Below are positions 1,862 to 52,909 of a stretch of 64,000 bases of DNA, one piece after another (position 1 is the stretch's first letter; each line of letters opens with the position of its first letter). The stretch covers positions 21,769-85,768 of the forward strand of contig CAZMPJ010000002.1 in assembly GCA_964568455.1 (NCBI GenBank), written 5' to 3'. The DNA comes from an uncultured bacterium. GTDB taxonomy: Bacteria; Margulisbacteria; WOR-1; O2-12-FULL-45-9. Below the pieces are notes generated by a model. It was not told the origin of the DNA and did no database searches. It saw only the letters and a list, made by a program, of their open reading frames with translations. A program made the translations under genes and the position numbers.

Positions 1862-1882
1862 ATAGCCGTGTTATAATAAATT

Positions 1883-19416: not shown

Positions 19417-20210
19417 AGCGTTATTTATTAATTTCCCTATTACTATGTTTATTTGTTTCTCCAGTTTTTGCTTCCTATATTAGCTTAAACACTTCAGTTA
19501 CGGCTAAAGTGGTAGGCAATCAACTAAAAGTCTTAGTTACCGCGGTTAATAAGGGCGATGAAGCAGCTTACAGTGTCCAAGCCGAATTGCGGGCTGGTGG
19601 CAAAAAAATACTAGCGGAAAAAGTTCAAAAATTAGGAGTAAATCAAACTTATAAAGGTTATGCGACTTTTAATTTAAAGCTTGATAAGGCTGGTCATTAC
19701 CCCTTGGTAATAGTTATGCATTATGCTGATGCAAACCAGTATCCTTTTTCAGCTTTAACCATTCAGACCTTTGCTTATAAGGCTCAAGATATGCCTAGAG
19801 ACCTTTTTGGCCGCATGAAAGCGACTACTTTTTGGGAAAATGGCAGTATTGAATTAACTTTAAAAAATAGCAGCAATGTTAGTCTCAAAGCCAAAGCTGA
19901 TTTAGTGGTTCCCAAAGAAATAACTGTGTTGGGTAATGTAAAAGATATTACTCTTGCTGCCAGAGTGTCAGATAAAGTTAGATTTGACTTGGAAAATTTT
20001 TCCGCTTTAAGCGGCAGTAATTATCAGGTTTACGCGGTTAGCGAATATAATAAAGATAACTTGCATTATACTGTGATTACGCCGGGGATGATCAAAATCA
20101 TGGAAAGAAAAAGTCTTTTGGGAATTGATTATCAATATTTATTAGTGTTTTTAATTGTCTTAGTGGTAGTATTTATCCTTTTTCAAGTATTTAAAAGTGA
20201 AAAGAAATAA
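19413..20210 (+). CDS. hypothetical secreted protein with C-terminal TM anchor
   Basis: Signal peptide, beta-rich body, C-terminal hydrophobic helix. Translationally coupled into the downstream glycosylation cluster. Confidence 0.35.
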   Translation: MKRYLLISLLLCLFVSPVFASYISLNTSVTAKVVGNQLKVLVTAVNKGDEAAYSVQAELRAGGKKILAEKVQKLGVNQTYKGYATFNLKLDKAGHYPLVIVMHYADANQYPFSALTIQTFAYKAQDMPRDLFGRMKATTFWENGSIELTLKNSSNVSLKAKADLVVPKEITVLGNVKDITLAARVSDKVRFDLENFSALSGSNYQVYAVSEYNKDNLHYTVITPGMIKIMERKSLLGIDYQYLLVFLIVLVVVFILFQVFKSEKK

Positions 20211-35473: not shown

Positions 35474-36967
35474 ATGTCAGAAAAAAAATATGTAAAGTTT
35501 GCAGGGAAAATATTGATTATTGGCTGCGGTTCGGTTTCGCAATGTGCTATCCCTCTGATTATCCGCCACATTGATGTTGATCCTAAGCGAGTTACTATTA
35601 TGGATTTTGTAGATAATAGCCATCGAGTAAAAGATTCACTGGCTAAAGGCGTTAAATATGTTAATGATCGAGTTACGCAAGATAATTATCAACAATTGCT
35701 GGCAAAATATGTTGGTAAGGGCGATTTAATTGTTGATTTAGCCTGGAACATTGATTGTATTGCTATAGTTAAATGGTGTCGGGATAATGAGGTGCTTTAT
35801 TGCAATACTTCGGTAGAAGAATGGGATCCGTATAAAGATGCAGAAAGAAATGATCCAGGGAAATATACATTATATTCAAGGCATATGGAAATTAGAAGAA
35901 AACTGGAAGAATGGGGCAATGAAAATGTTACTACTGCCATTGTTGACCATGGTGCTAATCCAGGATTGGTTTCTCATTTTACCAAACATGCTTTAATTGG
36001 TATTGCAAAAAAGATTCTTGCGGAAAAACCAAAAGACGAAAGGGTTGAACCATTAAAAGCGGCTTTAAAAGATAAAAACTTTGCAAAATTAGGCCAATTA
36101 ACCGGAACCAAAGTTATTCATATTTCAGAGCGTGATACCCAGATTACTGATAAACCAAAACAGGTCAATGAATTTGTAAACACCTGGAGTATTGAAGGCT
36201 TTTTTGAAGAAGGGGTGGCGCCGTCCGAATTGGGGTGGGGCACACACGAAAAATATATTCCAGAAGGAACTTATTTTCACAAAGTTGGTCCGCAAAACCA
36301 GATTTGCCTTAAAACTATTGGTATGAAAACCTGGGTAAGGTCTTGGGTTCCTTGTGGTGAAATTACTGGAATGGTGGTTCGCCATGGCGAAGCTTTTAGT
36401 ATTTCTGATCGCTTAACTGTTTGGGAAAACGGCAAAGCAGTTTATCGACCCACTGTCCATTATGCTTACTGTCCTTCTAATGCAGCGATCAATTCTTTGC
36501 ATGAACTGGAAATGCGCCAATTTAATCTGCAAGAGAAGCAAAGAATTATGAACGATGAAATTATTGATGGCGAAGACCAGCTTGGAGTTCTTCTAATGGG
36601 CCACGATTTTAAGTCCTGGTGGTGCGGCAGCTTGCTTGATATTCACAGTGCCAGAAAATTGGTTTTAGGACAACAAGCCACCACCATGCAGGTAGCTATA
36701 TCAGTTGTGTCAGCTGCAGTTTGGATGATTAAAAACCCAAAAAGAGGATTTTTAATGCCAGACGATGTTGATCATGAGGCAGTTTTAGAAGTAGCCATGG
36801 ATTATATTAAGCCTTTTGTTTCAAAAGCAGTTGATTGGACCCCGCTTAAAAATCTAAATAGTAAATTTACTAAATTTGATATCCCAATGCCAACTGAAGA
36901 AGATGTTTGGCAGTTTACTACTTTTTTGGTAGACCATAATATGCGCGCAAGAGCTAAAAAAATATGA
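35474..36967 (+). CDS. hss: homospermidine synthase
   Basis: Strong matches to bacterial HSS: ERDTQ, VNTWSIEGF, ELGWGT, VYRPTVHYAY, QLGVLLMGH, DWTPL. N-terminal Rossmann GCGSVS. Confidence 0.8.
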   Translation: MSEKKYVKFAGKILIIGCGSVSQCAIPLIIRHIDVDPKRVTIMDFVDNSHRVKDSLAKGVKYVNDRVTQDNYQQLLAKYVGKGDLIVDLAWNIDCIAIVKWCRDNEVLYCNTSVEEWDPYKDAERNDPGKYTLYSRHMEIRRKLEEWGNENVTTAIVDHGANPGLVSHFTKHALIGIAKKILAEKPKDERVEPLKAALKDKNFAKLGQLTGTKVIHISERDTQITDKPKQVNEFVNTWSIEGFFEEGVAPSELGWGTHEKYIPEGTYFHKVGPQNQICLKTIGMKTWVRSWVPCGEITGMVVRHGEAFSISDRLTVWENGKAVYRPTVHYAYCPSNAAINSLHELEMRQFNLQEKQRIMNDEIIDGEDQLGVLLMGHDFKSWWCGSLLDIHSARKLVLGQQATTMQVAISVVSAAVWMIKNPKRGFLMPDDVDHEAVLEVAMDYIKPFVSKAVDWTPLKNLNSKFTKFDIPMPTEEDVWQFTTFLVDHNMRARAKKI

Positions 36968-38082
36968 GCGACGGTATTGAAAATTTAATTAGACGTAAGG
37001 TTGAGCAGCAAGGCTCACCGCTTATGCTGATTAGCCGCAAAACTCTGCGCCAGCAATATGAGCGCTTTACCCGTTATCTTTCTATGGTTACTCCTTATTA
37101 CGCGATTAAAGCTAATCCTCACCCAGAAATCATCAAATACTTTATAAAACTGGGAGCAGGTTTTGACGTGGCTAGCGCTGCGGAAATGAATTTGGTGCTT
37201 AGCTTAGGAGCTGACCCTAAAAAAATTATTTTTGCTAATACAGTTAAATCTAATGAAGATATTGTGAAGGCTAACAGGAAAAAAGTACGCTTTATGACTT
37301 TTGATAATGAATCCGAACTTTATAAGATTGCTAAACATTGTTCTGGAGTCAGAGTTTTAGTCAGAATTAAAGTTAGCAATGACGGCAGCACGGTTGAATT
37401 GTCCCGCAAGTTTGGCGCTGATCCTGATCAAGCTATCTTCCTTTTAAAAAAAGCCAAATCATTGGGGCTTAAGCCAGCTGGAGTTTCTTTTCACGTAGGC
37501 TCACAATGTGTTAATTTGAAAAATTTTCTTCAAGCGTTAGATCTTTGCGGCACAATTTTTAATGAGGCTAAGGGCGTAGGCTTAAAGTTAGATACACTTG
37601 ATATTGGTGGAGGGTTTCCCATTCGTCATTTTGACAGTGACGACCATATGACTTTAAAAGAGATGGCTAGACATTTGCGCAAAAAAATGAAAAGGTTGTT
37701 TGATAAAGATACTAAGTTTATTGCGGAACCAGGAAGATATTTAGCTGGCCCTGCCGGAACCTTGGTTACTCGGGTAGTGGGAAGGACCTTTCGCAATAAT
37801 CGCAATTTTTATTATATTGATGACGGTATTTACGCGGATTTTTCCGGTATGATTTTTGATCATTGCCGCTATGAATTTAAAACTCTGCGCCGCGGCCAAA
37901 AATTCTTAAGCACTATTGCTGGACCTACTTGCGACTCTTTAGATATCCTTTCGCATAACGAAGATTTACCCGAGCTTGAAGTAGGTAATATTGTTTACGT
38001 AAAAAATATTGGAGCTTACTCTTGTGCCTCCGCGGTTCCTAATTTCAATGGTTTTAAGCCCGCGAAAATCATTATGGTATAA
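36964..38082 (+). CDS. PLP-dependent ornithine/basic-amino-acid decarboxylase (ODC family, fold type III)
   Basis: PYYAIKANP (PLP lysine), a GGGFP glycine loop, and the C-terminal beta-barrel domain. Translationally coupled to hss, supplying putrescine. Confidence 0.75.
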   Translation: MSDGIENLIRRKVEQQGSPLMLISRKTLRQQYERFTRYLSMVTPYYAIKANPHPEIIKYFIKLGAGFDVASAAEMNLVLSLGADPKKIIFANTVKSNEDIVKANRKKVRFMTFDNESELYKIAKHCSGVRVLVRIKVSNDGSTVELSRKFGADPDQAIFLLKKAKSLGLKPAGVSFHVGSQCVNLKNFLQALDLCGTIFNEAKGVGLKLDTLDIGGGFPIRHFDSDDHMTLKEMARHLRKKMKRLFDKDTKFIAEPGRYLAGPAGTLVTRVVGRTFRNNRNFYYIDDGIYADFSGMIFDHCRYEFKTLRRGQKFLSTIAGPTCDSLDILSHNEDLPELEVGNIVYVKNIGAYSCASAVPNFNGFKPAKIIMV

Positions 38083-40516: not shown

Positions 40517-40589
<73 letters not shown>

Positions 40590-40599
40590 TTTTTAATAT

Positions 40600-40674
40600 C
40601 GGGGTGTGGCTCAACTTGGCTAGAGCACCTGCTTTGGGAGCAGGGGGTTGCTGGTTCAAATCCAGTCACCCCGA
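40600..40674 (+). tRNA. tRNA-Pro (TGG)
   Basis: Anticodon loop TTTGGGA with G37, acceptor CGGGGTG/CACCCCG. Confidence 0.8.
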
Positions 40675-40682
40675 TTTTTTTG

Positions 40683-40757
40683 GGCGCCCGTAGCTCAGCT
40701 GGATAGAGCAACAGATTTCTAATCTGTAGGCCACAGGTTCGAATCCTGTCGGGTGCG
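40683..40757 (+). tRNA. tRNA-Arg (TCT)
   Basis: Anticodon loop TTTCTAA. D-loop AGCTCAGCTGGATAGAGC. Confidence 0.8.
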
Positions 40758-40765
40758 CGTTTAAT

Positions 40766-40846
40766 GGGCGAGTGGCGGAACTGGCAGACGCACTAGACTT
40801 AGGATCTAGCGGTTTATCCGTGGAGGTTCAAATCCTCTCTCGCCCA
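40766..40846 (+). tRNA. tRNA-Leu (TAG)
   Basis: Anticodon loop CTTAGGA and a long variable arm (class II). Confidence 0.75.
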
Positions 40847-40863
40847 TGTTATTATGTCAAAGT

Positions 40864-40936
<73 letters not shown>

Positions 40937-40938
40937 AT

Positions 40939-41011
40939 GCGCCACTAGCTCAACTGGCAGAGCAGGACACTCTTAATGTCAAGGTTATAGGTTCAACTCC
41001 TATGTGGCGCA
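40939..41011 (+). tRNA. tRNA-Lys (CTT), identity tentative
   Basis: Anticodon loop CTCTTAA with U33 and A37. There is a G-A mismatch at the base of the anticodon stem. The T-arm is ATAGG/CCTAT. Confidence 0.6.
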
Positions 41012-41035
41012 CTTTTTAATATTGCTGAATTGATT

Positions 41036-42190
41036 TTAGGGGTTTGACCAAGAAGCTCCATCCCATTTTGCAATATAAGCAAAGGGTGAAGTGACTTCCC
41101 AAGTAAAAGCTCCGCCAGCATATAAATTGCCAGAGCTGTTAAAAGCTAGTGTTTTTACGTAATCATTCAAGCCATCTCCTAGGGCAGACCAAGAAGATCC
41201 GTTCCACTTTGCAATACGGTTAACCGTAGTTGTTTCTGCGCTAGTAAAGTTTCCTCCAACATATAAATTTCCACCACTGTCAAAAGCCAGTGTATTTACA
41301 ATTCCATTTAAACCATCTCCCAGGGTAGACCAAACCAGGCCATTCCATTTGGCAATATAATTAGCGGAAAGACTGCCGGCAGTGGTAAAAACTCCGCCAA
41401 CGTATAAATTATCTGAACTATCAATAGCTAATGCATTTACATCTTGATTCAATCCTGCTCCTAGACCAAACCAAGATGATCCATCCCATTTTGCCACACG
41501 ATTAGCTGAAGTACTGCCGATAGCAGTAAAACTTCCTCCAATATATAAGTTTCCCGAGCTGTCAAAAGCCAGGGCATATACATTGGCAGAATTAATATTG
41601 CTAGATCCAACCGCAGACCAAGCAGCGGTGTTCCATTTAGCAAGATAAGCAGCTGAAACAGTACCGGCTGTAGTAAACCCTCCGCCAGCATATAAATTTC
41701 CAGCACTATCAAAAAGAAGACTTAGTACTGTTGAATCAAATCCAGCCCCTAAGGCAGACCAAGAAGAACCATTCCATTTAGCCGTGTAATTAAAAGCAGT
41801 GGTTAAAGTTGATTCCCAGGTAAAAGCTCCACCAGCGTGTAAATTGCCAGAACTGTCAAAAGCCAATGCGTTTACGTCTTTATCAAACCCATCTCCTAAG
41901 GCAGACCAGGTAGCTCCATCCCATTTGCCAATGTAATTAAGGGAAGTGGCCCCGGCTGTAACAAAAGAACCGCCAACATATAAATCTCCCGAACTATCAA
42001 AAGCAATTGCTTTGACAACACTATTTAAAGTAGAACCTGAACTTATGGTTGTAGTAGTACTAGTGGTGGTAGTTGTTGTGGTAGTGCCAGACTGTCCACA
42101 ACCTGTAGTATAAAAAACAAACAACAAACAACAAACAATAGCCAATATCAAAATACTAAATTTTTTCATAATAAATATTATAACATGCAA
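41036..42190 (-). CDS. surface lipoprotein with poly-Thr linker and about 7 beta-propeller-type repeats
   Basis: Signal peptide with Cys. A TTTTTTTTSTTTT linker. Repeated roughly 48-aa units (IAKWDGSSWSALG.G.N..VNALAFDSSGNLY.GG.FT). Confidence 0.5.
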   Translation of the reverse strand: MHVIIFIMKKFSILILAIVCCLLFVFYTTGCGQSGTTTTTTTTSTTTTISSGSTLNSVVKAIAFDSSGDLYVGGSFVTAGATSLNYIGKWDGATWSALGDGFDKDVNALAFDSSGNLHAGGAFTWESTLTTAFNYTAKWNGSSWSALGAGFDSTVLSLLFDSAGNLYAGGGFTTAGTVSAAYLAKWNTAAWSAVGSSNINSANVYALAFDSSGNLYIGGSFTAIGSTSANRVAKWDGSSWFGLGAGLNQDVNALAIDSSDNLYVGGVFTTAGSLSANYIAKWNGLVWSTLGDGLNGIVNTLAFDSGGNLYVGGNFTSAETTTVNRIAKWNGSSWSALGDGLNDYVKTLAFNSSGNLYAGGAFTWEVTSPFAYIAKWDGASWSNP

Positions 42191-42221: not shown

Positions 42222-43424
42222 GTGAAACCAGAATTATTAATTCCAGCCGGAGATTTGGAAAAGCTTGAAACCGCAGTGCGGTTTGGGGCGGATGCGGTAT
42301 ATGTGGGGGGAGGGGATTTTTCTCTTCGGGCTGCACAAACCTCGTTTTCTCTTGATGATTTAAAAAAAGGGATTAAATTTGCTCATCAGCATAAAGTTAA
42401 AATCTATTTAGCCATTAATATCTTCGCTTTTGATGAAGACTTAAAACCCATGCTTGATTATTTAGACCAAGCAGTTAAACTGGGAATTGACGCGGCAATT
42501 ATTTCAGATCCTGGCTTTATATATATAGTAAAGCAGAAATATCCCAAACTAAAGATCCACTTAAGCACCCAGGCTAATAGTTTAAACTCTGAAACAGTTA
42601 AATTTTGGAAAGAGCAGGGAATTAAACGCATTGTCTTAGGCCGTGAATTAAGTTTAGACCAAATTAAAAACATTAGAAAAACGGTTCCAGATATAGAGCT
42701 TGAACTTTTTGTCCATGGTGCCATGTGTATGTCTTATTCTGGTCGTTGTCTGCTTTCAAAATTCATGACGGGGAGAAGTGCGAACCGAGGAGAATGTACT
42801 CATCCTTGCCGCTGGCAGTATCGTTTAAAAGAAATGGAGCGGCCGGATGAAGAATTTTTAATTGAGGAAGATGAACGCGGCACCTATATAATGAATTCAA
42901 AAGACCTTTGTATGATTGAGCATGTTGCTAAACTAATTGAAGCAGGTGTTAATTCATTTAAAATCGAAGGCCGCATGAAATCTGCCTACTATGTTTCTAT
43001 TGCCACTAAGATTTATCGCCAAGCCATTGATCAAAATCCAAAATATGATCCAGCTTGGAAATTCGAATTAGAAAATATTTCCCACCGCAATTATACGACT
43101 GGATTTTATTTAGATGAAGATGATCGGGAAAATGTTGGCGATAGCTCTTATCAGAGAAAATATGCTTTTGTTGGCGTAGTTGATGACTGCAACTCTAAAA
43201 AACAGGAATTAAAAGTTAAGGCCCGCAACTATTTTGCAGTTGGCGATGAGCTGGAGATAGTTGATCCAAAAATAGATGAAATCAGGCGGTTTAAAGTTCG
43301 AAAAGCTATTAATCAAGATGGTTTAGATGTGCAGAAAGTGCATAACCAGAATTATGTAAGCCTTACATATGATGGTAAGTACGACGTAAGTAAGTATTCA
43401 TTATTAAGAAGGAGAGTAAGTTGA
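42222..43424 (+). CDS. peptidase U32 family protein
   Basis: N-terminal PAGDLEKL..A...GADAVY(V/I)GG motif and a conserved central Cys-rich region. Confidence 0.8.
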   Translation: MKPELLIPAGDLEKLETAVRFGADAVYVGGGDFSLRAAQTSFSLDDLKKGIKFAHQHKVKIYLAINIFAFDEDLKPMLDYLDQAVKLGIDAAIISDPGFIYIVKQKYPKLKIHLSTQANSLNSETVKFWKEQGIKRIVLGRELSLDQIKNIRKTVPDIELELFVHGAMCMSYSGRCLLSKFMTGRSANRGECTHPCRWQYRLKEMERPDEEFLIEEDERGTYIMNSKDLCMIEHVAKLIEAGVNSFKIEGRMKSAYYVSIATKIYRQAIDQNPKYDPAWKFELENISHRNYTTGFYLDEDDRENVGDSSYQRKYAFVGVVDDCNSKKQELKVKARNYFAVGDELEIVDPKIDEIRRFKVRKAINQDGLDVQKVHNQNYVSLTYDGKYDVSKYSLLRRRVS

Positions 43425-44407
43425 AAACAGCAATTATTGGATCCCCGCAAGCAGGCCAGCAGGAATTATTTTGTCTTTTAACCCAGATAGATCTGGATAT
43501 GGTTAGGCAAAAACCATTGGATGTGCATTTGGGTATATGCGAGGTTAAAGATCCACGCATTGACCAATTGGTAAAAATATTTAATCCTAAAAAAATCACT
43601 TATGCCCGCATTGAGTATATGCTTTTGCCGGGTTTTAATCTTAAGCAAATGAAAAACGCAGATGAAATCTGCTGGGTTACTCTGCTAGAAAATGCAGAAG
43701 CTGATATTGCTAATTTTGTGGCCGAAATGATTATTTCTGACCTGATGCTAATTGAAAAACGACTGGAAAATATTGCTAAAGACCAGAAAAGAAAGTTTGA
43801 TCAGCAAAGGGAAAAAGAAAAACAATTCATGGAGCTTTGCAAAAAGCAATTAGATCAGGAAAAATCTTTGAGCCTTTTATCCTTTTCGCCAGAACAGGCA
43901 AAAGAGATTAAAACCTATCAATTTTTAACCATGAAGCCGATTATTATTGTAGTTAATGTGCCAGAGGATAAAATTAATGATTCAGCTATAACAGAAAACA
44001 TTATTTATCCAAGTGTGCAATTGAGCATTGGGCTGGAATCAGAAATTAATCAATTAGATCCAGCTGATCGCGGAGCTTTTATGCAGGAAATGGGGATTGA
44101 CCAGCCGGCAGTAGAGAAAATGTCGATCATGGCCTATGAGGGTCTGGGTTTAATTTCATTTTTTACCGTAGGGGAGGATGAGGTAAGGGCTTGGACTATT
44201 AGAAAAAACTCAACTGCAGCGCAAGCGGGTGGCGCCATTCATTCTGATATTGAAAAAGGCTTTGTGCGGGCAGAGATGTGTTGTTATCAAGATTTGCTGG
44301 CAGCGGGTTCAGAAGCAAAGTTAAAAGAAAAAGGTAAATACCACCTTAAAGGCCGCGATTATATTGTACAGGATGGCGATGTGTTAGCTTTTCGATTTAA
44401 TGTTTAG
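43421..44407 (+). CDS. YchF/OLA1-like protein with degenerate Walker A (pseudo-GTPase?)
   Basis: The C-terminal TGS domain is closely YchF-like (KGRDYIVQDGDVLAFRFNV). The N-terminal G1 position reads IIGSPQAGQQELF instead of GxPNVGKST. The protein is about 35 aa shorter than canonical YchF. Confidence 0.5.
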   Translation: MKTAIIGSPQAGQQELFCLLTQIDLDMVRQKPLDVHLGICEVKDPRIDQLVKIFNPKKITYARIEYMLLPGFNLKQMKNADEICWVTLLENAEADIANFVAEMIISDLMLIEKRLENIAKDQKRKFDQQREKEKQFMELCKKQLDQEKSLSLLSFSPEQAKEIKTYQFLTMKPIIIVVNVPEDKINDSAITENIIYPSVQLSIGLESEINQLDPADRGAFMQEMGIDQPAVEKMSIMAYEGLGLISFFTVGEDEVRAWTIRKNSTAAQAGGAIHSDIEKGFVRAEMCCYQDLLAAGSEAKLKEKGKYHLKGRDYIVQDGDVLAFRFNV

Positions 44408-44502
44408 CTTTGCTGAGAACAAAGATTTGAGATTTTGGGAATCCCGAAATATTCACGAAAGACCTAGGCGCTAAAACCCGAAGGAATTTTCTCAAAAACT
44501 CT

Positions 44503-44555
44503 AAAACCCAAATCATCCCGAACATTATTATAGTTTTTGGGAAGATTTGGGTTTT
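44503..44555 (+). promoter_or_regulatory. long imperfect hairpin within a structured 290-nt leader/intergenic region
   Basis: AAAACCCAAATCATCCCGAACA ... TTTTTGGGAAGATTTGGGTTTT forms a roughly 20-bp stem with one or two mismatches. Additional crossing complementarities lie on either side (CCCGAAAT/ATTTTCGGG and CACGAAA/TTTCGTG). Confidence 0.4.
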
Positions 44556-44701
44556 TGGATTTTCGGGCTGTTTCTTCGTGTTTTCGTGACTGTCAATCTA
44601 GTGAGCATTTCGTAATTTCGGATATTTGTGAATAAAAAACATTGAAATTTCTTAGAAAACCTGTCGAAATAGAAGTAGCAAAAGTAAAGGAGGAATTTAT
44701 C

Positions 44702-45208
44702 ATGGGAATAATTACGAATTCATTAACCAGTGCTTATTATTGTGCTAGGCGAGGGGTGCAGATTGTAAAAAAACAAAGCAATTATATGAAGGGTTTGCAT
44801 GCTTTTACTTGTTTATTTAGCCAGGCTTTGTTTTCACAAAAGGATATAACTATTAATGTTAAAAATAGGGAAATTAATTACGACGGTTATATTCCGGATT
44901 TCTGTAGAAGTGTATTGCCAAAAGGAATTACGCAGGCTTTAGAAAATAGGCAAATTGATGTAGTGCAAATAAGAGTTAAGAGCACAGTTGAAGATTCTTG
45001 TCCCGATGGAACCATTAAATATTTACTAAGGAATAGCTTCCGTGCTTTAGCCTTGCATGGCATAAAGGATATGTCGATTGAGTACAATCTTGCTAATCAA
45101 AGTGTAACCGGGCTTAACTTTTTTGTGGATGGTGTAGCGCAAATATCGCAAGCTCTGGGTGTTGAAAATGGGATTGTGATTGATATAGAGATTAGTCAAA
45201 GGAACTAA
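44702..45208 (+). CDS. hypothetical protein
   Basis: The start was moved to the ATG preceded by AAGGAGG. No recognisable motif. Translationally coupled (3-nt gap) to the downstream radical SAM gene. Confidence 0.35.
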   Translation: MGIITNSLTSAYYCARRGVQIVKKQSNYMKGLHAFTCLFSQALFSQKDITINVKNREINYDGYIPDFCRSVLPKGITQALENRQIDVVQIRVKSTVEDSCPDGTIKYLLRNSFRALALHGIKDMSIEYNLANQSVTGLNFFVDGVAQISQALGVENGIVIDIEISQRN

Positions 45209-45211
45209 CAA

Positions 45212-47176
45212 ATGTTTAGAGTTGCCCCCAAAACAGGAATAACCCCCCGTGGTAAGATTCTTTTTGCCAGTAGGATGACGGATCCTAAAGGCTTTGACAA
45301 GATATCTAGTAATTTGGGCTTCATGATACCTCCTTTACGAGACCATGGTTATGAAGTATTAGTTAGCCAAGCTAATGTGGGTCTTATGCGTAGTTCTGCG
45401 GGGTTTTTATTTATGGAAGATTTGCAAGCTGGAGAACGTTTTAGAGAAGACTTGGCGAGATCTGAAAAACAAGTGATTGAGACTATGCAAGAAGAAATAG
45501 ACGTTCATGAGCCGGATTTTGTGGCCTTTTCTGCATATGACATAAATGTTTTAAGTATTTTTAATATTGCTACTGCTTTAGCTAAAAGTAATCCCACGGT
45601 TGCGTTTGTTTTTGGCGGACATTTTATTACTATTAATCCGCAGGTGGTCAGAGATAATTTTACCGACTTTCCTAATATAATCATGATAAATGGAGAAGCC
45701 GAATTTGCTTTACCCCAAGCTTTAATGGCTTTTCAAGATTCCACAAAAATTGAATCACCAGGAATTTTTATTCAAAGGATGGATGCGCTTATTGGTGATA
45801 CTTTTGATCAGCGTGTAAGCCTTACCTCAGAAGAGCATGCTGGTTTAGAGTTTTATCTTGATGTGCAAGCAGACCAGTTAAGGTTTATGTTAACAGAATT
45901 TAATGAGCCAGGCGTTGATCTGTTTACTTCAAGAGGATGTTTTAGAGGTTGTTCTTATTGTGCTGCTAGTTCAGCCATAAGAAGTCGTTTTGTTACTTGG
46001 TCTGCGTCTTCTATTGTGGAACAAATTAGCCAGGCTTTTAGCTGGGCCAGAGAAAAAGTAGGTCTCCATAAATTAAATATTGGTTTGATAGATGATGATC
46101 GATTAAGATCACCTAGGATAATTAGCGAGCTTATGACGTTAATTAAAGCAAGCGACTTGCGCAACAAGATAAAATTGCATATGCAAGGATGCTTTTCTGG
46201 TTTAGTTGATGGAGAAGGGAATGTGCGAACAGATTTAATGGATGAAATGCAAGGTGTGGTTGGTTTAATAAATATTGGTGGGGATTTTTGGGACACAGAA
46301 GGACGTTTGCGAAATAGGGGTGGGGATGAAAGCAAGTTGTCTAATGCAAAAATTAGGGAAATTATAAAAGAGTTAGCCAAAAGAGAAATAGCGGCTCGCT
46401 TATATTGGCTTTTGGGTGACGAAAAAACAACCATTTCTGCCATGACCGAAACAGCTTTGTTTTTAAATGAGCTTTATCTTGATTTCGCTCCTTTTATAAA
46501 ACTTGATGTTCCTGAACCTGTTTTTCCCTATTCTGGCACTCCTCTTCGTCAGAGATTAGAAGCTTCAGCAGAAGGAAAAAAGCTTCTTAAGGTTGCCTCT
46601 CGGTTAGGTTCTTTTCCAATTTATGATTTTATTCTGCCTCCTGGAAAGTTAATCGCAAAGGTGTATAGGGATGTGTCTTTAAATTGTCATATGGTTGGGA
46701 GTGAAGTGACCCCTAGTGTTTTCGTAAATTATCTTTATCTCTTTAGCAAACAATGGCGTTCTAGGATGAGAGAAAATCAGAAAGATATATTAGATGAAGC
46801 TGTTGATTTATTGAAACAAGGTATTTCGGTTACACAAATAAGACAGTTCTTGCCGGAAATAGAAAAATTGCCTACCATTTTTAGGTTTGCCGAAGAAGAA
46901 CCTCGACAGTTTAGTATTGAAGAATTATTAGAAGCTTATCATGCCATGTTAAGTATTCCTGAATATTATGGTACACGTGAGCTTCTAAGGGCAGAAGAAT
47001 CAAGAAGAAACCCGATTTTAGCTAAATCGCACAGCGGCGAGATAGATCATAGAGGGAAAAAACTAAGAAAGAGACCCAACGACCCTTGTCCTTGTGCTAG
47101 TGGTAAAAAATATAAAAAGTGTTGTGGGGTGGGGAAAGTTGGAAAGAAAAAGAAGAAAAAGAAGAAGAAACAGTAA
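45212..47176 (+). CDS. B12-binding-domain radical SAM protein with C-terminal SEC-C zinc motif and poly-Lys tail
   Basis: Rossmann-like N-terminal domain. CxxxCxxC (CFRGCSYC) radical SAM cluster motif. C-terminal DPCPCASGKKYKKCCG matches the SecA SEC-C zinc-binding motif. Ends KKKKKKKKKQ. Confidence 0.55.
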   Translation: MFRVAPKTGITPRGKILFASRMTDPKGFDKISSNLGFMIPPLRDHGYEVLVSQANVGLMRSSAGFLFMEDLQAGERFREDLARSEKQVIETMQEEIDVHEPDFVAFSAYDINVLSIFNIATALAKSNPTVAFVFGGHFITINPQVVRDNFTDFPNIIMINGEAEFALPQALMAFQDSTKIESPGIFIQRMDALIGDTFDQRVSLTSEEHAGLEFYLDVQADQLRFMLTEFNEPGVDLFTSRGCFRGCSYCAASSAIRSRFVTWSASSIVEQISQAFSWAREKVGLHKLNIGLIDDDRLRSPRIISELMTLIKASDLRNKIKLHMQGCFSGLVDGEGNVRTDLMDEMQGVVGLINIGGDFWDTEGRLRNRGGDESKLSNAKIREIIKELAKREIAARLYWLLGDEKTTISAMTETALFLNELYLDFAPFIKLDVPEPVFPYSGTPLRQRLEASAEGKKLLKVASRLGSFPIYDFILPPGKLIAKVYRDVSLNCHMVGSEVTPSVFVNYLYLFSKQWRSRMRENQKDILDEAVDLLKQGISVTQIRQFLPEIEKLPTIFRFAEEEPRQFSIEELLEAYHAMLSIPEYYGTRELLRAEESRRNPILAKSHSGEIDHRGKKLRKRPNDPCPCASGKKYKKCCGVGKVGKKKKKKKKKQ

Positions 47177-47225
47177 CTTTTCACGCAATTTTTGCATTCT
47201 TTTTAATAAACTTAGTTTTTTTATC

Positions 47226-47254
47226 TTGACAAAAATATTAACTACCATGTATGC
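47226..47254 (+). promoter_or_regulatory. putative promoter (TTGACA -35) upstream of the pdaD operon
   Basis: Perfect TTGACA at 47226-47231, with a weak -10 candidate (GTATGC/TATAAA) 17-24 nt downstream. Confidence 0.3.
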
Positions 47255-47263
47255 TTATAAAAT

Positions 47264-47842
47264 ATGAGTATATTAGTACCAAAAAGAATTTTTTTAACTA
47301 AAGGGGTTGGCCGACATAAAGAAAGATTGGCTAGCTTTGAGATGGCGCTGCGGGATGCAGGTATTCAAGCAGTTAACTATGTTCAAGTTTCTAGTATTTT
47401 CCCTCCTGGTTGCAAACAAATTTCTAAAGATCAAGGTTTAAAATTAATTAAACCCGGAGAAATTTCTTTTATCGTCATGGCAAAAAATGCGACTGACGAA
47501 TCTCATCGCCTAATCTCTGCTTCGGTTGGCATGGCTATTCCTACTGATGTTACTTCTTATGGTTATCTAAGCGAACATCATGCAGAAGGGGCGACTGACG
47601 AAGAATGTGGTGAGTATGCCGAAGATATTGCCGCTCAAATGCTGGCAACTACTTTAGGCGTGCCTTTTGATGAAGACTCAAGTTGGGACGAAAGACAAGA
47701 TCAATGGAAACTTTCTGATCAAATTGTTAAAACTACTCATATAACCCAAAGTGCTATTGGCCAACGAGGAGGGTGGACTACTGTTGTAGCTGCGGCCGTG
47801 CTTTTGCTTGACCACCAAGTTCAAGATGAGCCTGCAAGTTAA
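47264..47842 (+). CDS. pdaD: pyruvoyl-dependent arginine decarboxylase
   Basis: ALRDAGIQAVNYVQVSS|IFPP matches the PdaD self-cleavage Ser-Ser site region. About 190 aa. Confidence 0.65.
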   Translation: MSILVPKRIFLTKGVGRHKERLASFEMALRDAGIQAVNYVQVSSIFPPGCKQISKDQGLKLIKPGEISFIVMAKNATDESHRLISASVGMAIPTDVTSYGYLSEHHAEGATDEECGEYAEDIAAQMLATTLGVPFDEDSSWDERQDQWKLSDQIVKTTHITQSAIGQRGGWTTVVAAAVLLLDHQVQDEPAS

Positions 47843-48536
47843 AGGATTCATTGAAACCTCTTTTTTAGATTGGGACGGCAAAATTGTTTCCACTCTTTAT
47901 GTTCCCGGCTGTAACTTTCGTTGTCCCTTTTGCCATAATTCTGGTTTAATTGAAAATCCAAATCATTATGATACTATTCCCTTGGAAAAAATTAAAAGTT
48001 TTATGTCAGAACATAAAGATTTTCTAGATGGGATTTGTTTAACCGGCGGAGAACCTTGTCTGCATAAAAATTCAGGATTAGACGACTTTTTAAAACAAAT
48101 TAAAGATTTGGGTTTTCAAATTAAATTTGATACCAATGGTACTGACCCGGAATATTTAAAAAAGTTAATTGATCAGCAGCTAATTGATTATGTTGCCATG
48201 GATATTAAGGGTCCACTGGATGAGCGTTATGACCGTTTAACCGGGATTAAAACTGATTTAGATAAAATTAAGCAAAGCATAAAAATTATTATGCAAAGCA
48301 ACCTTGCTTATGAATTTAGAACCACGGTAGTGCCTACGTTATTGGATAATAAAGATATGGAAGATATTGCTATTGAGCTAGAAGGCGCTAAAAAAATCGT
48401 GCTGCAGCAATTTGTAGCGGAAAATTGTTGGGACGAGGGCCTGCGGAAATTGAAACCTTATGAGAAGGAAAAATTAGAGGAAATGGTCAAGATCATGAAG
48501 CCTTATGTTTCCAATACCTTAATTAGGGGGGCGTGA
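47826..48536 (+). CDS. radical SAM activating-enzyme-like protein (NrdG/TIGR02495-like family)
   Basis: FLDWDGKIVSTLYVPGCNFRCPFCHN: an N-terminal CxxxCxxC located as in class III RNR / glycyl-radical activases. Start at the internal ATG 47826, overlapping the pdaD stop. Confidence 0.55.
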   Translation: MSLQVKGFIETSFLDWDGKIVSTLYVPGCNFRCPFCHNSGLIENPNHYDTIPLEKIKSFMSEHKDFLDGICLTGGEPCLHKNSGLDDFLKQIKDLGFQIKFDTNGTDPEYLKKLIDQQLIDYVAMDIKGPLDERYDRLTGIKTDLDKIKQSIKIIMQSNLAYEFRTTVVPTLLDNKDMEDIAIELEGAKKIVLQQFVAENCWDEGLRKLKPYEKEKLEEMVKIMKPYVSNTLIRGA

Positions 48537-49288
48537 TGAAGTATGTTTATGGTCCTGTTCCCAGTTGGCGGTTGGGTAGGTCGCTTGGGGTGGACTTGAT
48601 TTCCGGTGAGCATACTTGTTCTTTTAATTGCCTTTACTGTCAACTCGGTGAAACCAAAAATAAAACCAGGCAGAGGAAGGTTTTTAATTCGACCAAAGAT
48701 ATTATTAAAGATATAGAGCAATTGCCAGAAGTGGAGTTTGATTACATCACACTTTCTGGAACAGGTGAGCCAAGCTTAGGCTTAAACTTGGGTGAAGTGG
48801 TGCGAGAACTTAAAAAACGATTTGATAAACCAGTAGCGATTTTAACTAATGCAACTTTAATGTCTGATCCTAAAGTTCGCGAGCAACTTAGCAATTGTGA
48901 TTTAGTCATTGCCAAGTTAGACGCAGCGGAAGAGGGTTTATTGCAAATTATTAATCAGCCGGTTGAAGTTGATTTAGCGGCAATAATAGAGGGAATAAAA
49001 AAGTTTAACCAAGAATATCCTGGTAAACTGGCTTTGCAGATTATGTTTGTTGAGCAAAATAAGAATCAAGCAGCTGGATTAGCTAAATTGGCCAAAGAAA
49101 TCAATCCAGTTGAGGTGCAGATTAACACTCCGCTTAGACCTTGCGACATAAAACCTTTAGCCAAGGAAGAAATTGATAAAATTAAAAAATTATTTTCTCC
49201 TCTACAAGTTACTTCGGTTTATGATGCTGAAAGACCAAGGATTAAACCCTTGGACGAACAACAAACCAGGAAACGAAGGCCAAGATGA
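48533..49288 (+). CDS. radical SAM protein (GPVPSxRLGRSLG family)
   Basis: N-terminal YGPVPSWRLGRSLGVDL followed by CSFNCLYCQ (CxxxCxxC). ATGA overlap with the upstream gene. Confidence 0.55.
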   Translation: MMKYVYGPVPSWRLGRSLGVDLISGEHTCSFNCLYCQLGETKNKTRQRKVFNSTKDIIKDIEQLPEVEFDYITLSGTGEPSLGLNLGEVVRELKKRFDKPVAILTNATLMSDPKVREQLSNCDLVIAKLDAAEEGLLQIINQPVEVDLAAIIEGIKKFNQEYPGKLALQIMFVEQNKNQAAGLAKLAKEINPVEVQINTPLRPCDIKPLAKEEIDKIKKLFSPLQVTSVYDAERPRIKPLDEQQTRKRRPR

Positions 49289-49929
49289 TTAAAGAGAATG
49301 TACAAAAGATATTAGCTGAGTTGCCAGAAGGGGTGGGGTTGGTTGCAGCAGCGAAAACTCGTTCTTTACCAGAAATTCAAGAAGCAGTGGCAGCTGGAGT
49401 AAAAATTATTGGCGAAAATTATATTCAAGAAGCAGCGCAAATAGTTGGAGAGGTTGGGAAGTTGGCTAAATTGCACTTTATTGGCCATTTGCAAAAAAAT
49501 AAAGTTAAAAAAGCAGTAGAAATATTTGATTTAATTGAAACTGTTGATTCTTATGCACTGGCCCAAGAAATCGATAAGCGTTGCGGGCAGATTAATAAAA
49601 TCATGCCAATTTTAATTGAAATAAACAGTGGTCAGGAAGGTCAGAAGTCTGGGGTCCTGCCACAAGTAGCAGAAACTTTAATCAAACAAATTTCCGCGCT
49701 GAAAAATATTAAAATAATGGGTTTAATGACCATGGGGCCTCTTGCCAATTTCCGTCCTTGTTTTGTAGCAACTAAGAAGCTTTTTGATAAAGTTAAGGCG
49801 CTTGGTTTGCCTGGAGTAGAGATGCACTATCTTTCTATGGGCATGACCGATTCCTACAAAGTTGCGATTGAAGAAGGGGCTAATCTGGTTAGGATCGGCA
49901 CTAAGATTTTTGGACAAAGAATAAAATAG
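49285..49929 (+). CDS. yggS: YggS family pyridoxal phosphate homeostasis protein
   Basis: LVAAAKTRS (PLP-binding Lys), an alanine-racemase-N-like TIM barrel, about 214 aa. Confidence 0.75.
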   Translation: MIKENVQKILAELPEGVGLVAAAKTRSLPEIQEAVAAGVKIIGENYIQEAAQIVGEVGKLAKLHFIGHLQKNKVKKAVEIFDLIETVDSYALAQEIDKRCGQINKIMPILIEINSGQEGQKSGVLPQVAETLIKQISALKNIKIMGLMTMGPLANFRPCFVATKKLFDKVKALGLPGVEMHYLSMGMTDSYKVAIEEGANLVRIGTKIFGQRIK

Positions 49930-49993: not shown

Positions 49994-50009
49994 TTTCAGG
50001 TCGTGTATT

Positions 50010-50082
50010 GACCGGCTAGCTCAGCTGGTAGAGCATCTGCCTTTTAAGCAGGTGGCCCTGGGTTCGAATCCCAGGCCGGTCA
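50010..50082 (+). tRNA. tRNA-Lys (TTT)
   Basis: Anticodon loop CTTTTAA. T-loop GGTTCGAATCC. Confidence 0.8.
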
Positions 50083-50086
50083 TAGT

Positions 50087-50159
<73 letters not shown>

Positions 50160-50191
50160 CTTTCGAATAAATTTCAAATGGGGAGAAGAAG

Positions 50192-50776
50192 ATGACTGCT
50201 AGATTTACTAAGGTTTGGCTGACTTTATTCGCAATCATTTTAATCTTTCTTGCCATCAATATTTTTATTTCCCATCGTAATCAGCCTGGCATCAAAGAAG
50301 TTTTAACTAAAAACAAAGTTTCCGCATCAGTAGATTTTTCTATGGTTATTACCAGTTTACTTGCCCTTTCTTTGGCTACTGTTTCAGTGGCAAAGGGTTA
50401 TGAAGTATTAAAAAGAAATAAAGACATGGCAGAGATGGTCTTAGACGAAGAAAGCGATCCTTATCATGATGAAAAAATGGAAGAATTGGATTTTACTATA
50501 AACGAATTACAAAAAGAGGTAGCAGAGTTTACTTCAAGTAGCGAAATTATCAAACGAGACAATGAAGAGTTAAAAAATCAAATTAAAAGAACAGCGCTGG
50601 AGTATGTTGAGATTAACAAGATGGAGCAAATGCTTAGAAAAAGTAATATTGCTTTAAGTAAAGAATGTGAAAATTTAAAATCTGAAAATGATAACTTATT
50701 GGCCGTCGCTCGGGGTAAGAAAAAAGCCCCTCGACTCGCTTCGCTTGCTCGGGGTAAAAGGAAAAGAAAAGCATGA
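50192..50776 (+). CDS. membrane protein with coiled-coil and basic C-terminal tail
   Basis: Two TM helices, a coiled-coil segment, and a C-terminal ARGKKKAPRLASLARGKRKRKA that is encoded by GC-rich repeat copy 3. Confidence 0.35.
   Translation: MTARFTKVWLTLFAIILIFLAINIFISHRNQPGIKEVLTKNKVSASVDFSMVITSLLALSLATVSVAKGYEVLKRNKDMAEMVLDEESDPYHDEKMEELDFTINELQKEVAEFTSSSEIIKRDNEELKNQIKRTALEYVEINKMEQMLRKSNIALSKECENLKSENDNLLAVARGKKKAPRLASLARGKRKRKA
50708..50756. repeat. GC-rich dispersed repeat copy 3 (GCTCGGGG ... CCCCTCGAC-N12-CTCGGGG)
   Basis: Shares the CCCCTCGAC and CTCGGGG cores with copies 1 and 2. Lies inside the 3' end of the ORF at 50192-50776. Confidence 0.5.
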
Positions 50777-51423
50777 GGAAAACAGTTCTTGTAGGGTTGT
50801 TAATATTATTTTTATCTGCTGCTTCTGGGGCGCAGTTTACTTTTCATCTTATTGATAATTTTGAAGATGGAACCTTTAACCGTGATCCTAAGTGGTGGCG
50901 CTTTGGCGACATTAAGCCAGAAATTGTTGGTAACGGTAGAGTAGAAGCTAAACGAGATCTGATTTCAGAATCTTGCGGCGATTATTCATTAAGGCTAACC
51001 GGAAAAACCAATGATTGGTATATTGGTGGAATTGGATCTGATATTGGAGTGGATGGCTCAAAGTTTTCTCGTTTTCAGATAGATATTTTTGGCCATAAAG
51101 ATTATAAAGGCAAATTAAAACTGGAAATCTTTGATGATGACAACATGAACTATTCCATTGAGCAAAACCCGCAAAAAGGATATGAGCCGGTTTATGATGA
51201 TAAGTGGGTGGCAGAGGTAAATGTTCAAGGCCGAGGCTTTACTCGGGTCTCTATCCCTTTTACCGCATTTAAAGATGCCAATCCTGGGATAGGAGACGAT
51301 ATTTGGAATCCTAATCAGGAAAATGGTTCAGGCGGACTAATGAAAATGCAGATGGTTATTATTTCTGAAGATCAAAAAGGCGATATAGATTGCCGGATTG
51401 ATAATCTTTTGCTGACTTACTAA
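50773..51423 (+). CDS. hypothetical secreted protein
   Basis: Signal peptide. No recognisable motif. Confidence 0.35.
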   Translation: MRKTVLVGLLILFLSAASGAQFTFHLIDNFEDGTFNRDPKWWRFGDIKPEIVGNGRVEAKRDLISESCGDYSLRLTGKTNDWYIGGIGSDIGVDGSKFSRFQIDIFGHKDYKGKLKLEIFDDDNMNYSIEQNPQKGYEPVYDDKWVAEVNVQGRGFTRVSIPFTAFKDANPGIGDDIWNPNQENGSGGLMKMQMVIISEDQKGDIDCRIDNLLLTY

Positions 51424-51445
51424 GTTTGATTAATAGGAGGCTTTT

Positions 51446-52909
51446 ATGAAAAAAATAATTTTGTTTCTACTCTTGGTAAGTGTTTTATCTATTAGCGCTT
51501 CTGCGGAAAAATATAATGTTATTGATAAGCAAGATATTAGTATTAAGGCTGGACCAACTGAGCCAGGAGAGGCACTTTCTTTGGTTTGGCTAGAAGCTTT
51601 CTTGTACCCAAAAAATGTTAAAGAAGACCGTGTGGTTGCCTTAGGGGTAAAGTTGCCTGGTAAAGCAGAAAGTATTTCTGCTTCTTTTGATTTTTTAGGA
51701 CACCCGATCTTTCTTACTTCTAATGATGGAAAAGATTGGAGCGCGGTTTATCAGCTTCCGCCAGGTATTGGCGAAGGGTTGCACGTGGTGCGTTATAGTA
51801 TTAAAGGAAAAAGAGGCACTATCCAGCGCACTTTAGATTTCTTTGTCAGCAAGCCAAGTAATTTAGTTAAGAATAAAGTTTCTGAAGGGGAAGTGGCAGA
51901 GCTTGCAGGTATTCCTTTAACCGTTGCTTCTACTTTTACTGCTCATGTTGATGGCTTAACCCGTATTCTTTATGCCGGACAAAAAATAACCGGTATTTCC
52001 AAAGTTCCTTGGTATAAAGTAGTTTTAGAAGATGGCAAAGAGACCTGGGTTCCTTCCACTTTAGTTAACGAGCCGGTGGAAGAATATTATCAATTAGGAT
52101 ATAAGCATTACACGAACAAGGATTTTGCAAAAGCAGTAGAATCTTACAGCACGGCTATTGCGATTGATCCAGAATTTGTCAAAGCCCATATGTGGCTGGC
52201 AAAAAGTTATTATAAATTAGGCAATTTGGACGCGGCGTATGATTCTATTTTAGAAGCGCTTAGCCTTGATAAAAATGATATGCCCAGCCGCTTGTTTGCC
52301 CAAACTTTGGCTCGAGAATTTTATGGGATAGCTAATCAAAAACTTAAACAAGCAAGATATAATGAAGCAATTTCTGCTTATCAAAAAGTAGTGGCTTTAA
52401 AGCCAACTTCTTATGCTTCCTGGATTGAACTGGGCAATAGTTACCAAAAATTAGGTTTTTATCAGGAAGCTAGGTCAGCTTGGAAAGAAGCGTTAAGAGC
52501 AGATCCGGAAAATCCTTCTGCTTATGCCTTGCTTAATATTAAGCATGACCAGGCGGCTTTAGCAATTCGTCCTCGGGTAAAAGAAGAAATCAAAATTGTA
52601 AAAGCACCTAGGGCAGTTCCAGCCGCAGTGGCAGATGATTCTTTGGCAGTGGTCAAAGCCAATAAAACTAAAAAAGGTACTAAGATTGAATCAGCTTTAA
52701 AATCAGTTATTACTTTAACTAAGTCGCTGGGTACTCCAGTGGTTGAAAAGGGTTGGGATGTAAAAAAATCAGGCAAAAAGTTTATGGTTTCTTATTTAGT
52801 GGAACAGGGTAGTGGGGCTCTTGAAGCTTTTGAATGGATGGTTGATGTTGATACTAAGCGCGTTTCTGCGAATAACGAAAATGCCCGGGTCCTAATGTCT
52901 CGTTGGTAA
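51446..52909 (+). CDS. secreted TPR-containing protein
   Basis: Signal peptide. TPR-like repeats in the central region (AY...Y..G....A...YQKA). Confidence 0.4.
   Translation: MKKIILFLLLVSVLSISASAEKYNVIDKQDISIKAGPTEPGEALSLVWLEAFLYPKNVKEDRVVALGVKLPGKAESISASFDFLGHPIFLTSNDGKDWSAVYQLPPGIGEGLHVVRYSIKGKRGTIQRTLDFFVSKPSNLVKNKVSEGEVAELAGIPLTVASTFTAHVDGLTRILYAGQKITGISKVPWYKVVLEDGKETWVPSTLVNEPVEEYYQLGYKHYTNKDFAKAVESYSTAIAIDPEFVKAHMWLAKSYYKLGNLDAAYDSILEALSLDKNDMPSRLFAQTLAREFYGIANQKLKQARYNEAISAYQKVVALKPTSYASWIELGNSYQKLGFYQEARSAWKEALRADPENPSAYALLNIKHDQAALAIRPRVKEEIKIVKAPRAVPAAVADDSLAVVKANKTKKGTKIESALKSVITLTKSLGTPVVEKGWDVKKSGKKFMVSYLVEQGSGALEAFEWMVDVDTKRVSANNENARVLMSRW

Follow-up and report, generated by a model that had tools for sequence, protein, structure and literature searches.

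A tightly packed pdaD-yggS gene unit with two radical SAM genes, and a neighbouring orphan pair with a cobalamin-type radical SAM gene, in an uncultured Margulisbacteria genome

We analysed 64,000 nucleotides of DNA (hereafter the window) from an uncultured bacterium of the Margulisbacteria (lineage WOR-1, O2-12-FULL-45-9; GenBank assembly GCA_964568455.1, contig CAZMPJ010000002.1, positions 21,769 to 85,768), and focused on six open reading frames (ORFs), A to F, that occupy 44702-49929, all on the forward strand. Three of them encode radical S-adenosylmethionine (SAM) proteins (B, D and E), and these are accompanied by a pyruvoyl-dependent arginine decarboxylase (PdaD; gene C) and a YggS protein (gene F). 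In the explanation we favour, to which we give about even credence, the locus consists of two independent units: the A+B pair, and a co-transcribed pdaD-D-E-yggS unit that would be the remnant of a larger DUF134-linked metal/redox cluster. What is new here is a set of known enzyme families in an undescribed arrangement, together with a rare subfamily of class B radical SAM enzymes.

According to this explanation, pdaD-D-E-yggS would be read from its own promoter-like site and be translationally coupled. D, a glycyl-radical-activase-like protein of the NrdG2 family, and E would be the two radical SAM enzymes that mark a larger cluster in anaerobes, the usual order of which would be DUF134, DUF5320, two NifX-like genes, thioredoxin, a DnaJ-like gene, a methyltransferase, D, Pyr_redox_2, E, MinD/CbiA-type Fe-S ATPases and NifU. 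In Margulis- and Saganbacteria, pdaD would stand at the DUF134 end of this cluster, and in the present lineage no more than pdaD-D-E would be left of the cluster, joined by yggS. Because D and E would belong to a reduced DUF134 cluster, their co-transcription with pdaD would reflect shared regulation and ancestral synteny, and not an agmatine-modifying pathway. D and E most likely act in metal, Fe-S or thiol-redox biology, judging from domain content only, and D possibly also activates a class III ribonucleotide reductase (RNR).

Organization of the locus

Genes C to F are a tightly packed, translationally coupled unit with overlapping ends, as a sequence-only reading of this DNA had described. 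C and D overlap by 17 nt in the DNA if D begins at ATG 47826, which is the start in a 100%-identical database protein (P0121); the overlap of D and E is GTGA (4 nt) or TGATG (1 nt), depending on the E start chosen; and that of E and F is ATGA (4 nt). B and C are separated by a gap of 87 nt, where a promoter-like site suggests a separate transcript for C to F. Only 8 nt separate the -10 element of this site from the pdaD ATG, with no evident Shine-Dalgarno sequence (47226-47266); the pdaD mRNA may be leaderless or near-leaderless.

The locus genes occur in identical copies on 8 metagenome contigs (Ga0115653_1000030 among the matches), and homologues of the locus genes are found at 50 to 92% identity, so A to F are real genes and not chance ORFs. 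Profile searches agree with the families that had been named for B to F, all of which are present; ORF A is an extra gene that the earlier description did not mention. No riboswitch or other known RNA was found in or around the cluster, where tRNAs alone reach the gathering score. A defence system was considered and rejected, as PADLOC yields generic matches only, at the level of radical SAM or viperin models (18-44 bits).

Genomic context of D and E

When one genome per GTDB species was scanned for D, homologues with 44-73% identity turned up at 80 loci. These belong to Margulis/Saganbacteria, Thermoplasmata and other archaea, Clostridia, Omnitrophota, Planctomycetia, Desantisbacteria and Nitrospirota. 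Neighbours were counted over 84 D loci by neighbour clustering and Pfam labels, and the counts within 3 kb were split by identity to the D of the window (Table 1). At 25 of the 84 loci, E is no more than 6 kb away from D.

Table 1 Gene families near D homologues, as loci with the family over loci counted
Family	Within 7 kb of D	Within 3 kb, D ≥56% identical	Within 3 kb, D <56% identical
Pyr_redox_2 flavoprotein (445 aa)	29/84		
Thioredoxin	19/84		
PdaD	17/84	15/29	2/55
CbiA/ParA-Fer4 ATPases	13/84		
DUF134	11/84	10/29	0/55
NifX-like	11/84		
YggS	11/84	6/29	5/55
MiaA	11/84		
PanD	11/84	0/29	9/55
Methyltransferase	10/84		
DsbD_TM	10/84		
Def	9/84		
Thi4	9/84		
E		14/29	4/55

In the context that we call T1, the order is Zip, DUF134, DUF5320, two NifX-like genes, thioredoxin, a DnaJ-like gene, a methyltransferase, D, Pyr_redox_2 and E, after which come a methyltransferase or a radical SAM/BATS gene, two or three CbiA-Fer4 genes, NifU and a metallo-beta-lactamase. 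The same context is also seen from the E side (L003 and L176-180; L numbers denote individual loci). Overall, D and/or E lie among DUF134-cluster genes (DUF134, NifX-like, thioredoxin, Pyr_redox_2, methyltransferase, CbiA-Fer4 and NifU) in L003, L010-12, L020-22, L029, L031, L034, L142 and L176-180. One large conserved cluster in related genomes fills positions 1-12771 of L176 and recurs in L177-L180, L003, L010, L029 and L034. It starts with DUF134, DUF5320, two NifX-like genes, thioredoxin, a DnaJ-like gene, a methyltransferase, a CGGC-domain protein and a D-type radical SAM, continues with Pyr_redox_2, an E-type radical SAM, a radical SAM/BATS protein (HydE/BioB-like) and three CbiA/MinD-Fer4 ATPases, and ends with DUF2099, NifU_N, rubrerythrin and a metallo-beta-lactamase. 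A literature search on the DUF134 cluster (DUF134, COG0731 and TIGR02495) returned nothing relevant.

The type to which the window belongs, T2, comprises DUF134, a small ORF, PdaD, D and, optionally, E, YggS or YibE_F, and next come the same three envelope-type genes that lie 3' of the window yggS (50192-52909). Shuffled forms of T2 are YggS-D-E-PdaD (L030 and L035), E-PdaD-D (L141), YggS-E-PdaD (L144) and PdaD-E (L104). In a neighbour-joining tree of D, copies from T1 (NifX/CbiA context) and T2 (PdaD-adjacent) are intermixed in one Margulis clade at 62-68% identity; the pdaD-adjacent D is therefore the same gene as the cluster-embedded D, in a rearranging neighbourhood. Other arrangements include Thi4-PanD-Pyr_redox_2-D-Def in Omnitrophota and Planctomycetia, Def-YggS-D-MetE-radical SAM-Trx-PanD-E in Clostridia (L048 and L066; Trx, thioredoxin) and a second clostridial order, E-Lgt-DsbD-Trx-Pyr_redox_2-Trx-D. 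A second Margulis paralog of D lies between aconitase genes and ZnPep2-MiaA.

Several observations weigh against a reduced DUF134 cluster. The window holds no DUF134, NifX or CbiA genes and keeps the D-E part only, so the cluster context is borrowed from relatives, and the term metal/redox is itself drawn from the domain content of that cluster only. The promoter-like site is a consensus match only, without significance on its own. D and E stay associated with pdaD through several rearrangements within the phylum (L030, L035, L141, L144 and L104), a persistence that may point to selection on the linkage over and above inherited gene order. Lastly, D occurs in other phyla near PanD (9/55) and near YggS (5/55, plus 6/29), which pure synteny decay does not predict.

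D is an NrdG2-family protein found mostly apart from NrdD

D reaches 198.6 bits on the TIGR02495 (NrdG2) hidden Markov model, the equivalog cut-off of which is 131.15, carries the motifs CNFRCPFC and LTGGEP, and has PflA-AE (3c8f) as the solved structure closest to it by sequence. In common with NrdG2 activases and PflA-AE, it shows a model score above cut-off, the CxxxCxxC(H)N and GGEP motifs and a similar size.

This assignment brings in a different explanation, which we find doubtful: D would be a true NrdG activase, serving a class III RNR with nrdD located elsewhere in the genome, E would be functionally unrelated, and the operon would be a group of clustered, persistent housekeeping genes (for polyamines, deoxynucleotides and pyridoxal phosphate (PLP)) that have no pathway in common. 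Besides the equivalog score, there is a full-length identity of 53% between D and its archaeal homologue in L042, where NrdD (TIGR02487, 423 bits) is encoded ~5 kb upstream of the D homologue and an NrdH-like thioredoxin directly before it (1214-7726). A second archaeal locus, L081 (1-2245), has the order NrdD, thioredoxin-like gene, D homologue. The families that most often adjoin D are thioredoxin, a known reductant of some class III RNRs, and a flavoprotein disulfide reductase; other contexts of D are housekeeping genes (Def, MiaA, Map, TrmO and Thi4).

Apart from these two archaeal loci, however, none of the 80 loci of the D family is NrdD-linked, and a search of the 80-odd bacterial loci showed no NrdD within 10 kb of D. 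Unlike NrdG2 activases, D also has no NrdD in its own window, where none of the 8 ORFs of at least 560 aa is NrdD and no open frame of at least 300 aa carries a C-terminal glycyl-radical motif; the large-ORF check and the motif scan thus bear out the earlier statement that the window encodes no class III RNR or other glycyl-radical enzyme. Two or more D paralogs are present in several genomes, namely MEUD01 (L029 and L039), JABMQY01 (L020 and L030), JAFGHC01 (L031 and L080) and JBDRLW01 (L034 and L051), although a single activase is enough for one RNR. The D subgroups are all about as far from the NrdD-linked archaeal genes (44-51% identity), none being nearer than the others, and TIGR02495 cannot discriminate between subgroups because all of them pass it, at 179-227 bits. 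D further differs from NrdG2 activases by a clade-specific two-residue insertion after GGEP and by its place within a DUF134/NifX-like/thioredoxin cluster, in which it holds an integral, conserved position (D-Pyr_redox_2-E).

E is a widespread minimal radical SAM protein

E is, by motif and profile, a widespread minimal radical SAM protein that maps to no characterised family. It matches Radical_SAM at 53 bits; its best NCBIfam match reaches 49 bits against a cut-off of 380, and none lies above cut-off. An N-terminal GPVPSWRLGRSLG motif is specific to the E family, and there is no auxiliary cluster motif, with two further Cys only outside CxxxCxxC. The 3722 homologues are named 'radical SAM protein' or (by JGI) 'wyosine synthetase' only. 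The latter label is unsupported, because E scores 21 bits on TIGR03972 against a cut-off of 317.95; with the motif for a second Fe-S cluster also missing, E was rejected as TYW1.

A search of PDB sequences with E gave no match. The structural model of E has a predicted local distance difference test score (pLDDT) of 93.6, and TYW1, NifB, viperin and PflAE are about equally close to it (template modelling score 0.6-0.65, 15-18% identity); as a means of assigning E, the fold search returned the generic radical SAM core only. E shares with TYW1-, NifB- and viperin-type cores the partial TIM-barrel and CxxxCxxC but, beyond the low identity, differs from them in that it lacks a second cluster motif as well as any NifX or flavodoxin domain.

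PdaD and YggS appear ordinary

C is predicted to be an ordinary, intact PdaD. It scores above the cut-offs of PF01862 (196.1 vs 22.7) and TIGR00286 (119.4 vs 106.95) and slightly under that of NF009064, the model for the bacterial type (192.1 vs 207). Compared with the pyruvoyl-dependent arginine decarboxylase PvlArgDC of M. jannaschii (MJ0316; 1n2m/2qqd), it keeps the self-cleavage Ser-Ser (S43-S44) and the equivalents of Asn47 and Glu109, with VNYVQVSSIFPP aligned to VNLIRISSIMPP and the Glu of LSEHH against MEYE. The differences from PvlArgDC are a Glu at the equivalent of Asp35 and a length greater by ~25 residues. The 15 orthologues across Margulis/Saganbacteria are 75-92% identical, with 83% of columns identical and the catalytic positions invariant.

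It had been suggested that C might be a pseudo-decarboxylase serving as the partner of a radical enzyme, and that catalytic residues beyond Ser-Ser should be checked. The Asn47 and Glu109 equivalents proved to be intact alongside Ser-Ser, and we rejected a pseudo-decarboxylase on the strength of these residues and of the strong purifying selection (83% column identity, 15 genomes).

PdaD would self-cleave at Ser43/Ser44 to form its pyruvoyl group and would make agmatine. Nine kilobases upstream of pdaD lies a pair of saccharopine-dehydrogenase-type and Orn/DAP/Arg-decarboxylase-type genes, which from pathway architecture we infer to be carboxy(nor)spermidine dehydrogenase and decarboxylase (CASDH/CASDC). 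Because of this putative pair, a conventional polyamine role is available to PdaD: agmatine would feed polyamine synthesis through CASDH/CASDC, on a route downstream of agmatine/putrescine. Neither agmatinase nor agmatine deiminase was identified among the window ORFs scanned.

F reaches 161 bits on TIGR00044 (cut-off 106.25) and aligns over its full length with structures of the PLP homeostasis protein (PLPHP), the Lys of VAAAKT being aligned to that of VAVTK in PLPHP 7ygf. It shares full-length homology and the PLP lysine with YggS/PLPHP proteins (E. coli YggS, 1w8g; PipY, 5nlc), from which nothing notable sets it apart except its recurring place beside D and E, and it would be the usual PLP-homeostasis protein.

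The link between PdaD and D is confined to one phylum

One further feature distinguishes C from known PdaD proteins: in this phylum, a radical SAM gene is often next downstream. A PdaD scan of metagenomes gave 80 loci. Among the 43 with PdaD at least 68% identical and enough downstream sequence, 16 have D directly after PdaD, and 18 have D or E no more than 1.5 kb away. The adjacency is confined to Margulis/Saganbacteria, where it is found in ~40-50% of loci, and the full C-D-E-F set is confined to the contigs of the window, L001, L030 and L035. In L098, DUF134-x-PdaD is followed at once by envelope genes, and other PdaD loci lie in unrelated contexts. At 60-66% identity, in other lineages, none of 18 PdaD loci has D, E or YggS nearby. 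Conservation of the neighbourhood, which the sequence-only reading had named as a check, was thus found in part: the link between PdaD, D, E and YggS recurs in related genomes, even rearranged, but in one phylum only.

That reading had also proposed an agmatine- or arginine-derived modification pathway. We see no sign of one, and D and E are tied more consistently to the DUF134-type cluster than to pdaD; an agmatine-linked function of D and E is possible but unlikely. The accompanying remark that no described pathway joins agmatine formation with radical SAM enzymes does agree with our literature search, in that no paper in the library searched links pyruvoyl decarboxylases to radical SAM.

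A broader form of this idea takes pyruvoyl decarboxylases, or the amines that they produce (agmatine and beta-alanine), as the targets of D and E, with YggS as partner, in a new modification, repair or derivatisation pathway. We judge this improbable. The adjacency of PdaD and D speaks for it (15/29 D loci and 16/43 PdaD loci), as does the retention of the set both in the order PdaD-D-E-YggS and in the shuffled orders given above. In addition, D lies within 3 kb of PanD in 9 of 55 loci, from Omnitrophota, Planctomycetia, Desantisbacteria, Clostridia and NPL-UPA2, and YggS lies within 3 kb of D in 11 of 84 loci, from at least four phyla. On the other hand, D and E are absent near PdaD not only at 60-66% identity (0/18) but also in over half of the Margulis-type PdaD loci, and the loci are phylogenetically non-independent. 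The PanD loci also contain Pyr_redox_2, Thi4 and Def, and so may be housekeeping operons. AdoMetDC, a third pyruvoyl enzyme, was considered as a recurrent neighbour and rejected, being seen in one locus only. In every case known, the pyruvoyl group arises autocatalytically, and the idea comes with no proposed chemistry.

Taken furthest, D and E would be a two-enzyme radical SAM module, conserved in at least five phyla, for amine-forming enzymes with carbonyl cofactors (PdaD/PanD, and the PLP protein YggS), modifying or repairing them or derivatising agmatine or beta-alanine, and the 'NrdG2' label of the clade would be wrong. To this version we give slightly less credence still; if true, it would be the first link of radical SAM chemistry with pyruvoyl enzymes.

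A and B are probably a separate, lineage-restricted pair

The best-supported reading of A and B, on present sequence comparisons, is a lineage-restricted orphan pair or insertion between ychF and the pdaD block, with no link to pdaD. The closest relative of the locus, L001 (GCA_974502175.1), has genes 62-95% identical to those of the window in the order U32, YchF, A, B, FHA, DUF134, DUF5320, NifX-like, NifX-like, PdaD, D, E, YggS. Five genes (FHA, DUF134, DUF5320 and two NifX-like) therefore separate B from pdaD there. Distant homologues of B adjoin unrelated genes (type I restriction-modification once and glycine-cleavage genes once). Because of the L001 gene order, these unrelated contexts and the promoter-like site in the B-C gap, we treat B as separate from C-F, and its earlier placement together with the pdaD genes does not hold.

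A single biosynthetic pathway with three radical SAM enzymes, comprising all six genes (A, B, pdaD, D, E and yggS), is accordingly very improbable. The six genes are adjacent and on the same strand in the window and in its near-identical copies. Against this stand the five unrelated genes of L001, the rarity of B near D (within 3 kb in 2 of the 84 D loci, the window's own contig and L001) and the finding that none of C-F is near B homologues elsewhere; these synteny data effectively refute such a pathway already.

By domain order and motif, and with support from its modelled fold, B qualifies as a class B (cobalamin-binding) radical SAM protein. Its B12-binding (29.1 vs 32.1 bits) and Radical_SAM (22.7 vs 29.5) matches each fall under the Pfam gathering thresholds, and we accepted both domains because of local matches to class B methyltransferase models (NCBIfam), an invariant CxxxCxxC (C243/C247/C250) and the fold matches. 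The best 16 PDB matches of its AlphaFold model (pLDDT 78) are all cobalamin-dependent radical SAM enzymes, OxsB, TokK, CysS, TsrM, MgmA and AprD4 among the proteins matched. With class B enzymes such as OxsB, TokK, CysS, TsrM and MgmA, B shares CxxxCxxC and, by fold, an N-terminal Rossmann (B12) domain followed by the radical SAM barrel. Unlike these enzymes, to which it is 11-15% identical, it comes near the cut-off of no characterised subfamily model (KedN5, HpnR, ApyD, TIGR04013 and others; best 17-33 bits vs cut-offs of 250-750), belongs to a tiny family and ends in a SEC-C zinc motif (PF02810, 30.3 bits vs 20.4; residues 623-639) and a poly-Lys tail.

A first word-index search with B was probably swamped by poly-Lys and SEC-C words, and the search was repeated exhaustively with HMMER after removal of the low-complexity tail. 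Among 1.84 billion representatives, the family comprises 7 representative clusters at E≤1e-30, past which the similarity is to generic class B radical SAM proteins only. The SEC-C tail is confined to the three closest homologues, and distant ones (32-37% identical) are without it. This SecA-like zinc finger and the poly-Lys tail probably anchor B to something acidic, which could be RNA, the ribosome or a membrane.

ORF A matches no Pfam, NCBIfam or PADLOC family; its counterpart at the corresponding place in L001, the sole conserved case, shows 62-63% identity. It was considered, and rejected, as a conserved partner of B or as a precursor of a ribosomally synthesized and post-translationally modified peptide, since the ORFs upstream of distant B homologues are unrelated to it (22-23% identity).

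Upstream of A, the ychF-A intergenic region contains an imperfect hairpin of ~180 nt (44438-44618; RNA fold -65.5 kcal/mol, z = -5.2) with central inverted-repeat arms at 44495-44528 and 44530-44563. The window contains one copy of it and the equivalent 77-nt spacer of L001 none; the hairpin could be an insertion resembling a miniature inverted-repeat transposable element, or a regulatory or terminator element. The YchF-like protein before it (43421-44407) matches only the C-terminal YchF domain in Pfam, scores 204 on TIGR00092 (cut-off 279) and reads GSPQAGQQ at the usual N-terminal position of the Walker A P-loop. The protein is 95% conserved in L001 and may be a nucleotide-binding-deficient YchF paralog.

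Feature coordinates and other parts of the window

The features of the locus are listed in Table 2.

Table 2 Coordinates of features discussed in the text (window numbering)
Feature	Position	Strand	Details
Saccharopine-dehydrogenase-type and Orn/DAP/Arg-decarboxylase-type genes	35474-38082	+	Pfam domains; overlapping ends
ORF A, hypothetical	44702-45208	+	168 aa; ATG after AGGAGG; 3 nt upstream of B
B, cobalamin-type (class B) radical SAM with SEC-C and poly-Lys tail, by domain order and motif	45212-47176	+	654 aa
Promoter-like site, TTGACA-18-TATGCT	47226-47255	+	10/12 consensus match
C, PdaD	47264-47842	+	192 aa; PF01862
D, NrdG2-family radical SAM	47826-48536 (alternative start 47808)	+	236 aa; TIGR02495
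E, minimal radical SAM	48533/48536-49288	+	250-251 aa; Radical_SAM
F, YggS/PLPHP	49285-49929	+	214 aa; TIGR00044
tRNA-Lys(ttt) and tRNA-Phe(gaa)	50009-50160	+	directly 3' of yggS; mark the end of the unit

Elsewhere in the window, a gene on the reverse strand (41036-42190) encodes a predicted lipoprotein-like protein of 384 aa, with a poly-Thr linker followed by ~10 repeats of the form 'FDSSGNLYVGGxFT...AKWNGSSWSALG'; its product looks like a beta-propeller-type repeat protein. Just before this gene is a cluster of six tRNAs (40517-41012). The region 20197-27332, which looks like an envelope glycosylation-type block, encodes a PTPS_related membrane protein, one further ORF and then two tandem DUF2079 membrane-protein paralogs of 695 aa.

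Implications

B represents a rare, new class B radical SAM subfamily, as far as its predicted class holds, and can be studied as a separate target. For D and E, the consequences concern many more proteins: thousands of D-type proteins are labelled 'anaerobic RNR activase' in databases, and E-type proteins 'wyosine synthetase'. For bacteria at least, the gene neighbourhoods speak for the membership of both types in an unstudied cluster of DUF134, NifX-like, thioredoxin and MinD-Fe-S genes. Uncultured anaerobes commonly carry this cluster, among them Margulisbacteria, Omnitrophota, Clostridia and Thermoplasmata. The four-gene pdaD-D-E-yggS operon would be a small, tractable piece of this cluster in which to probe the function of D and E.

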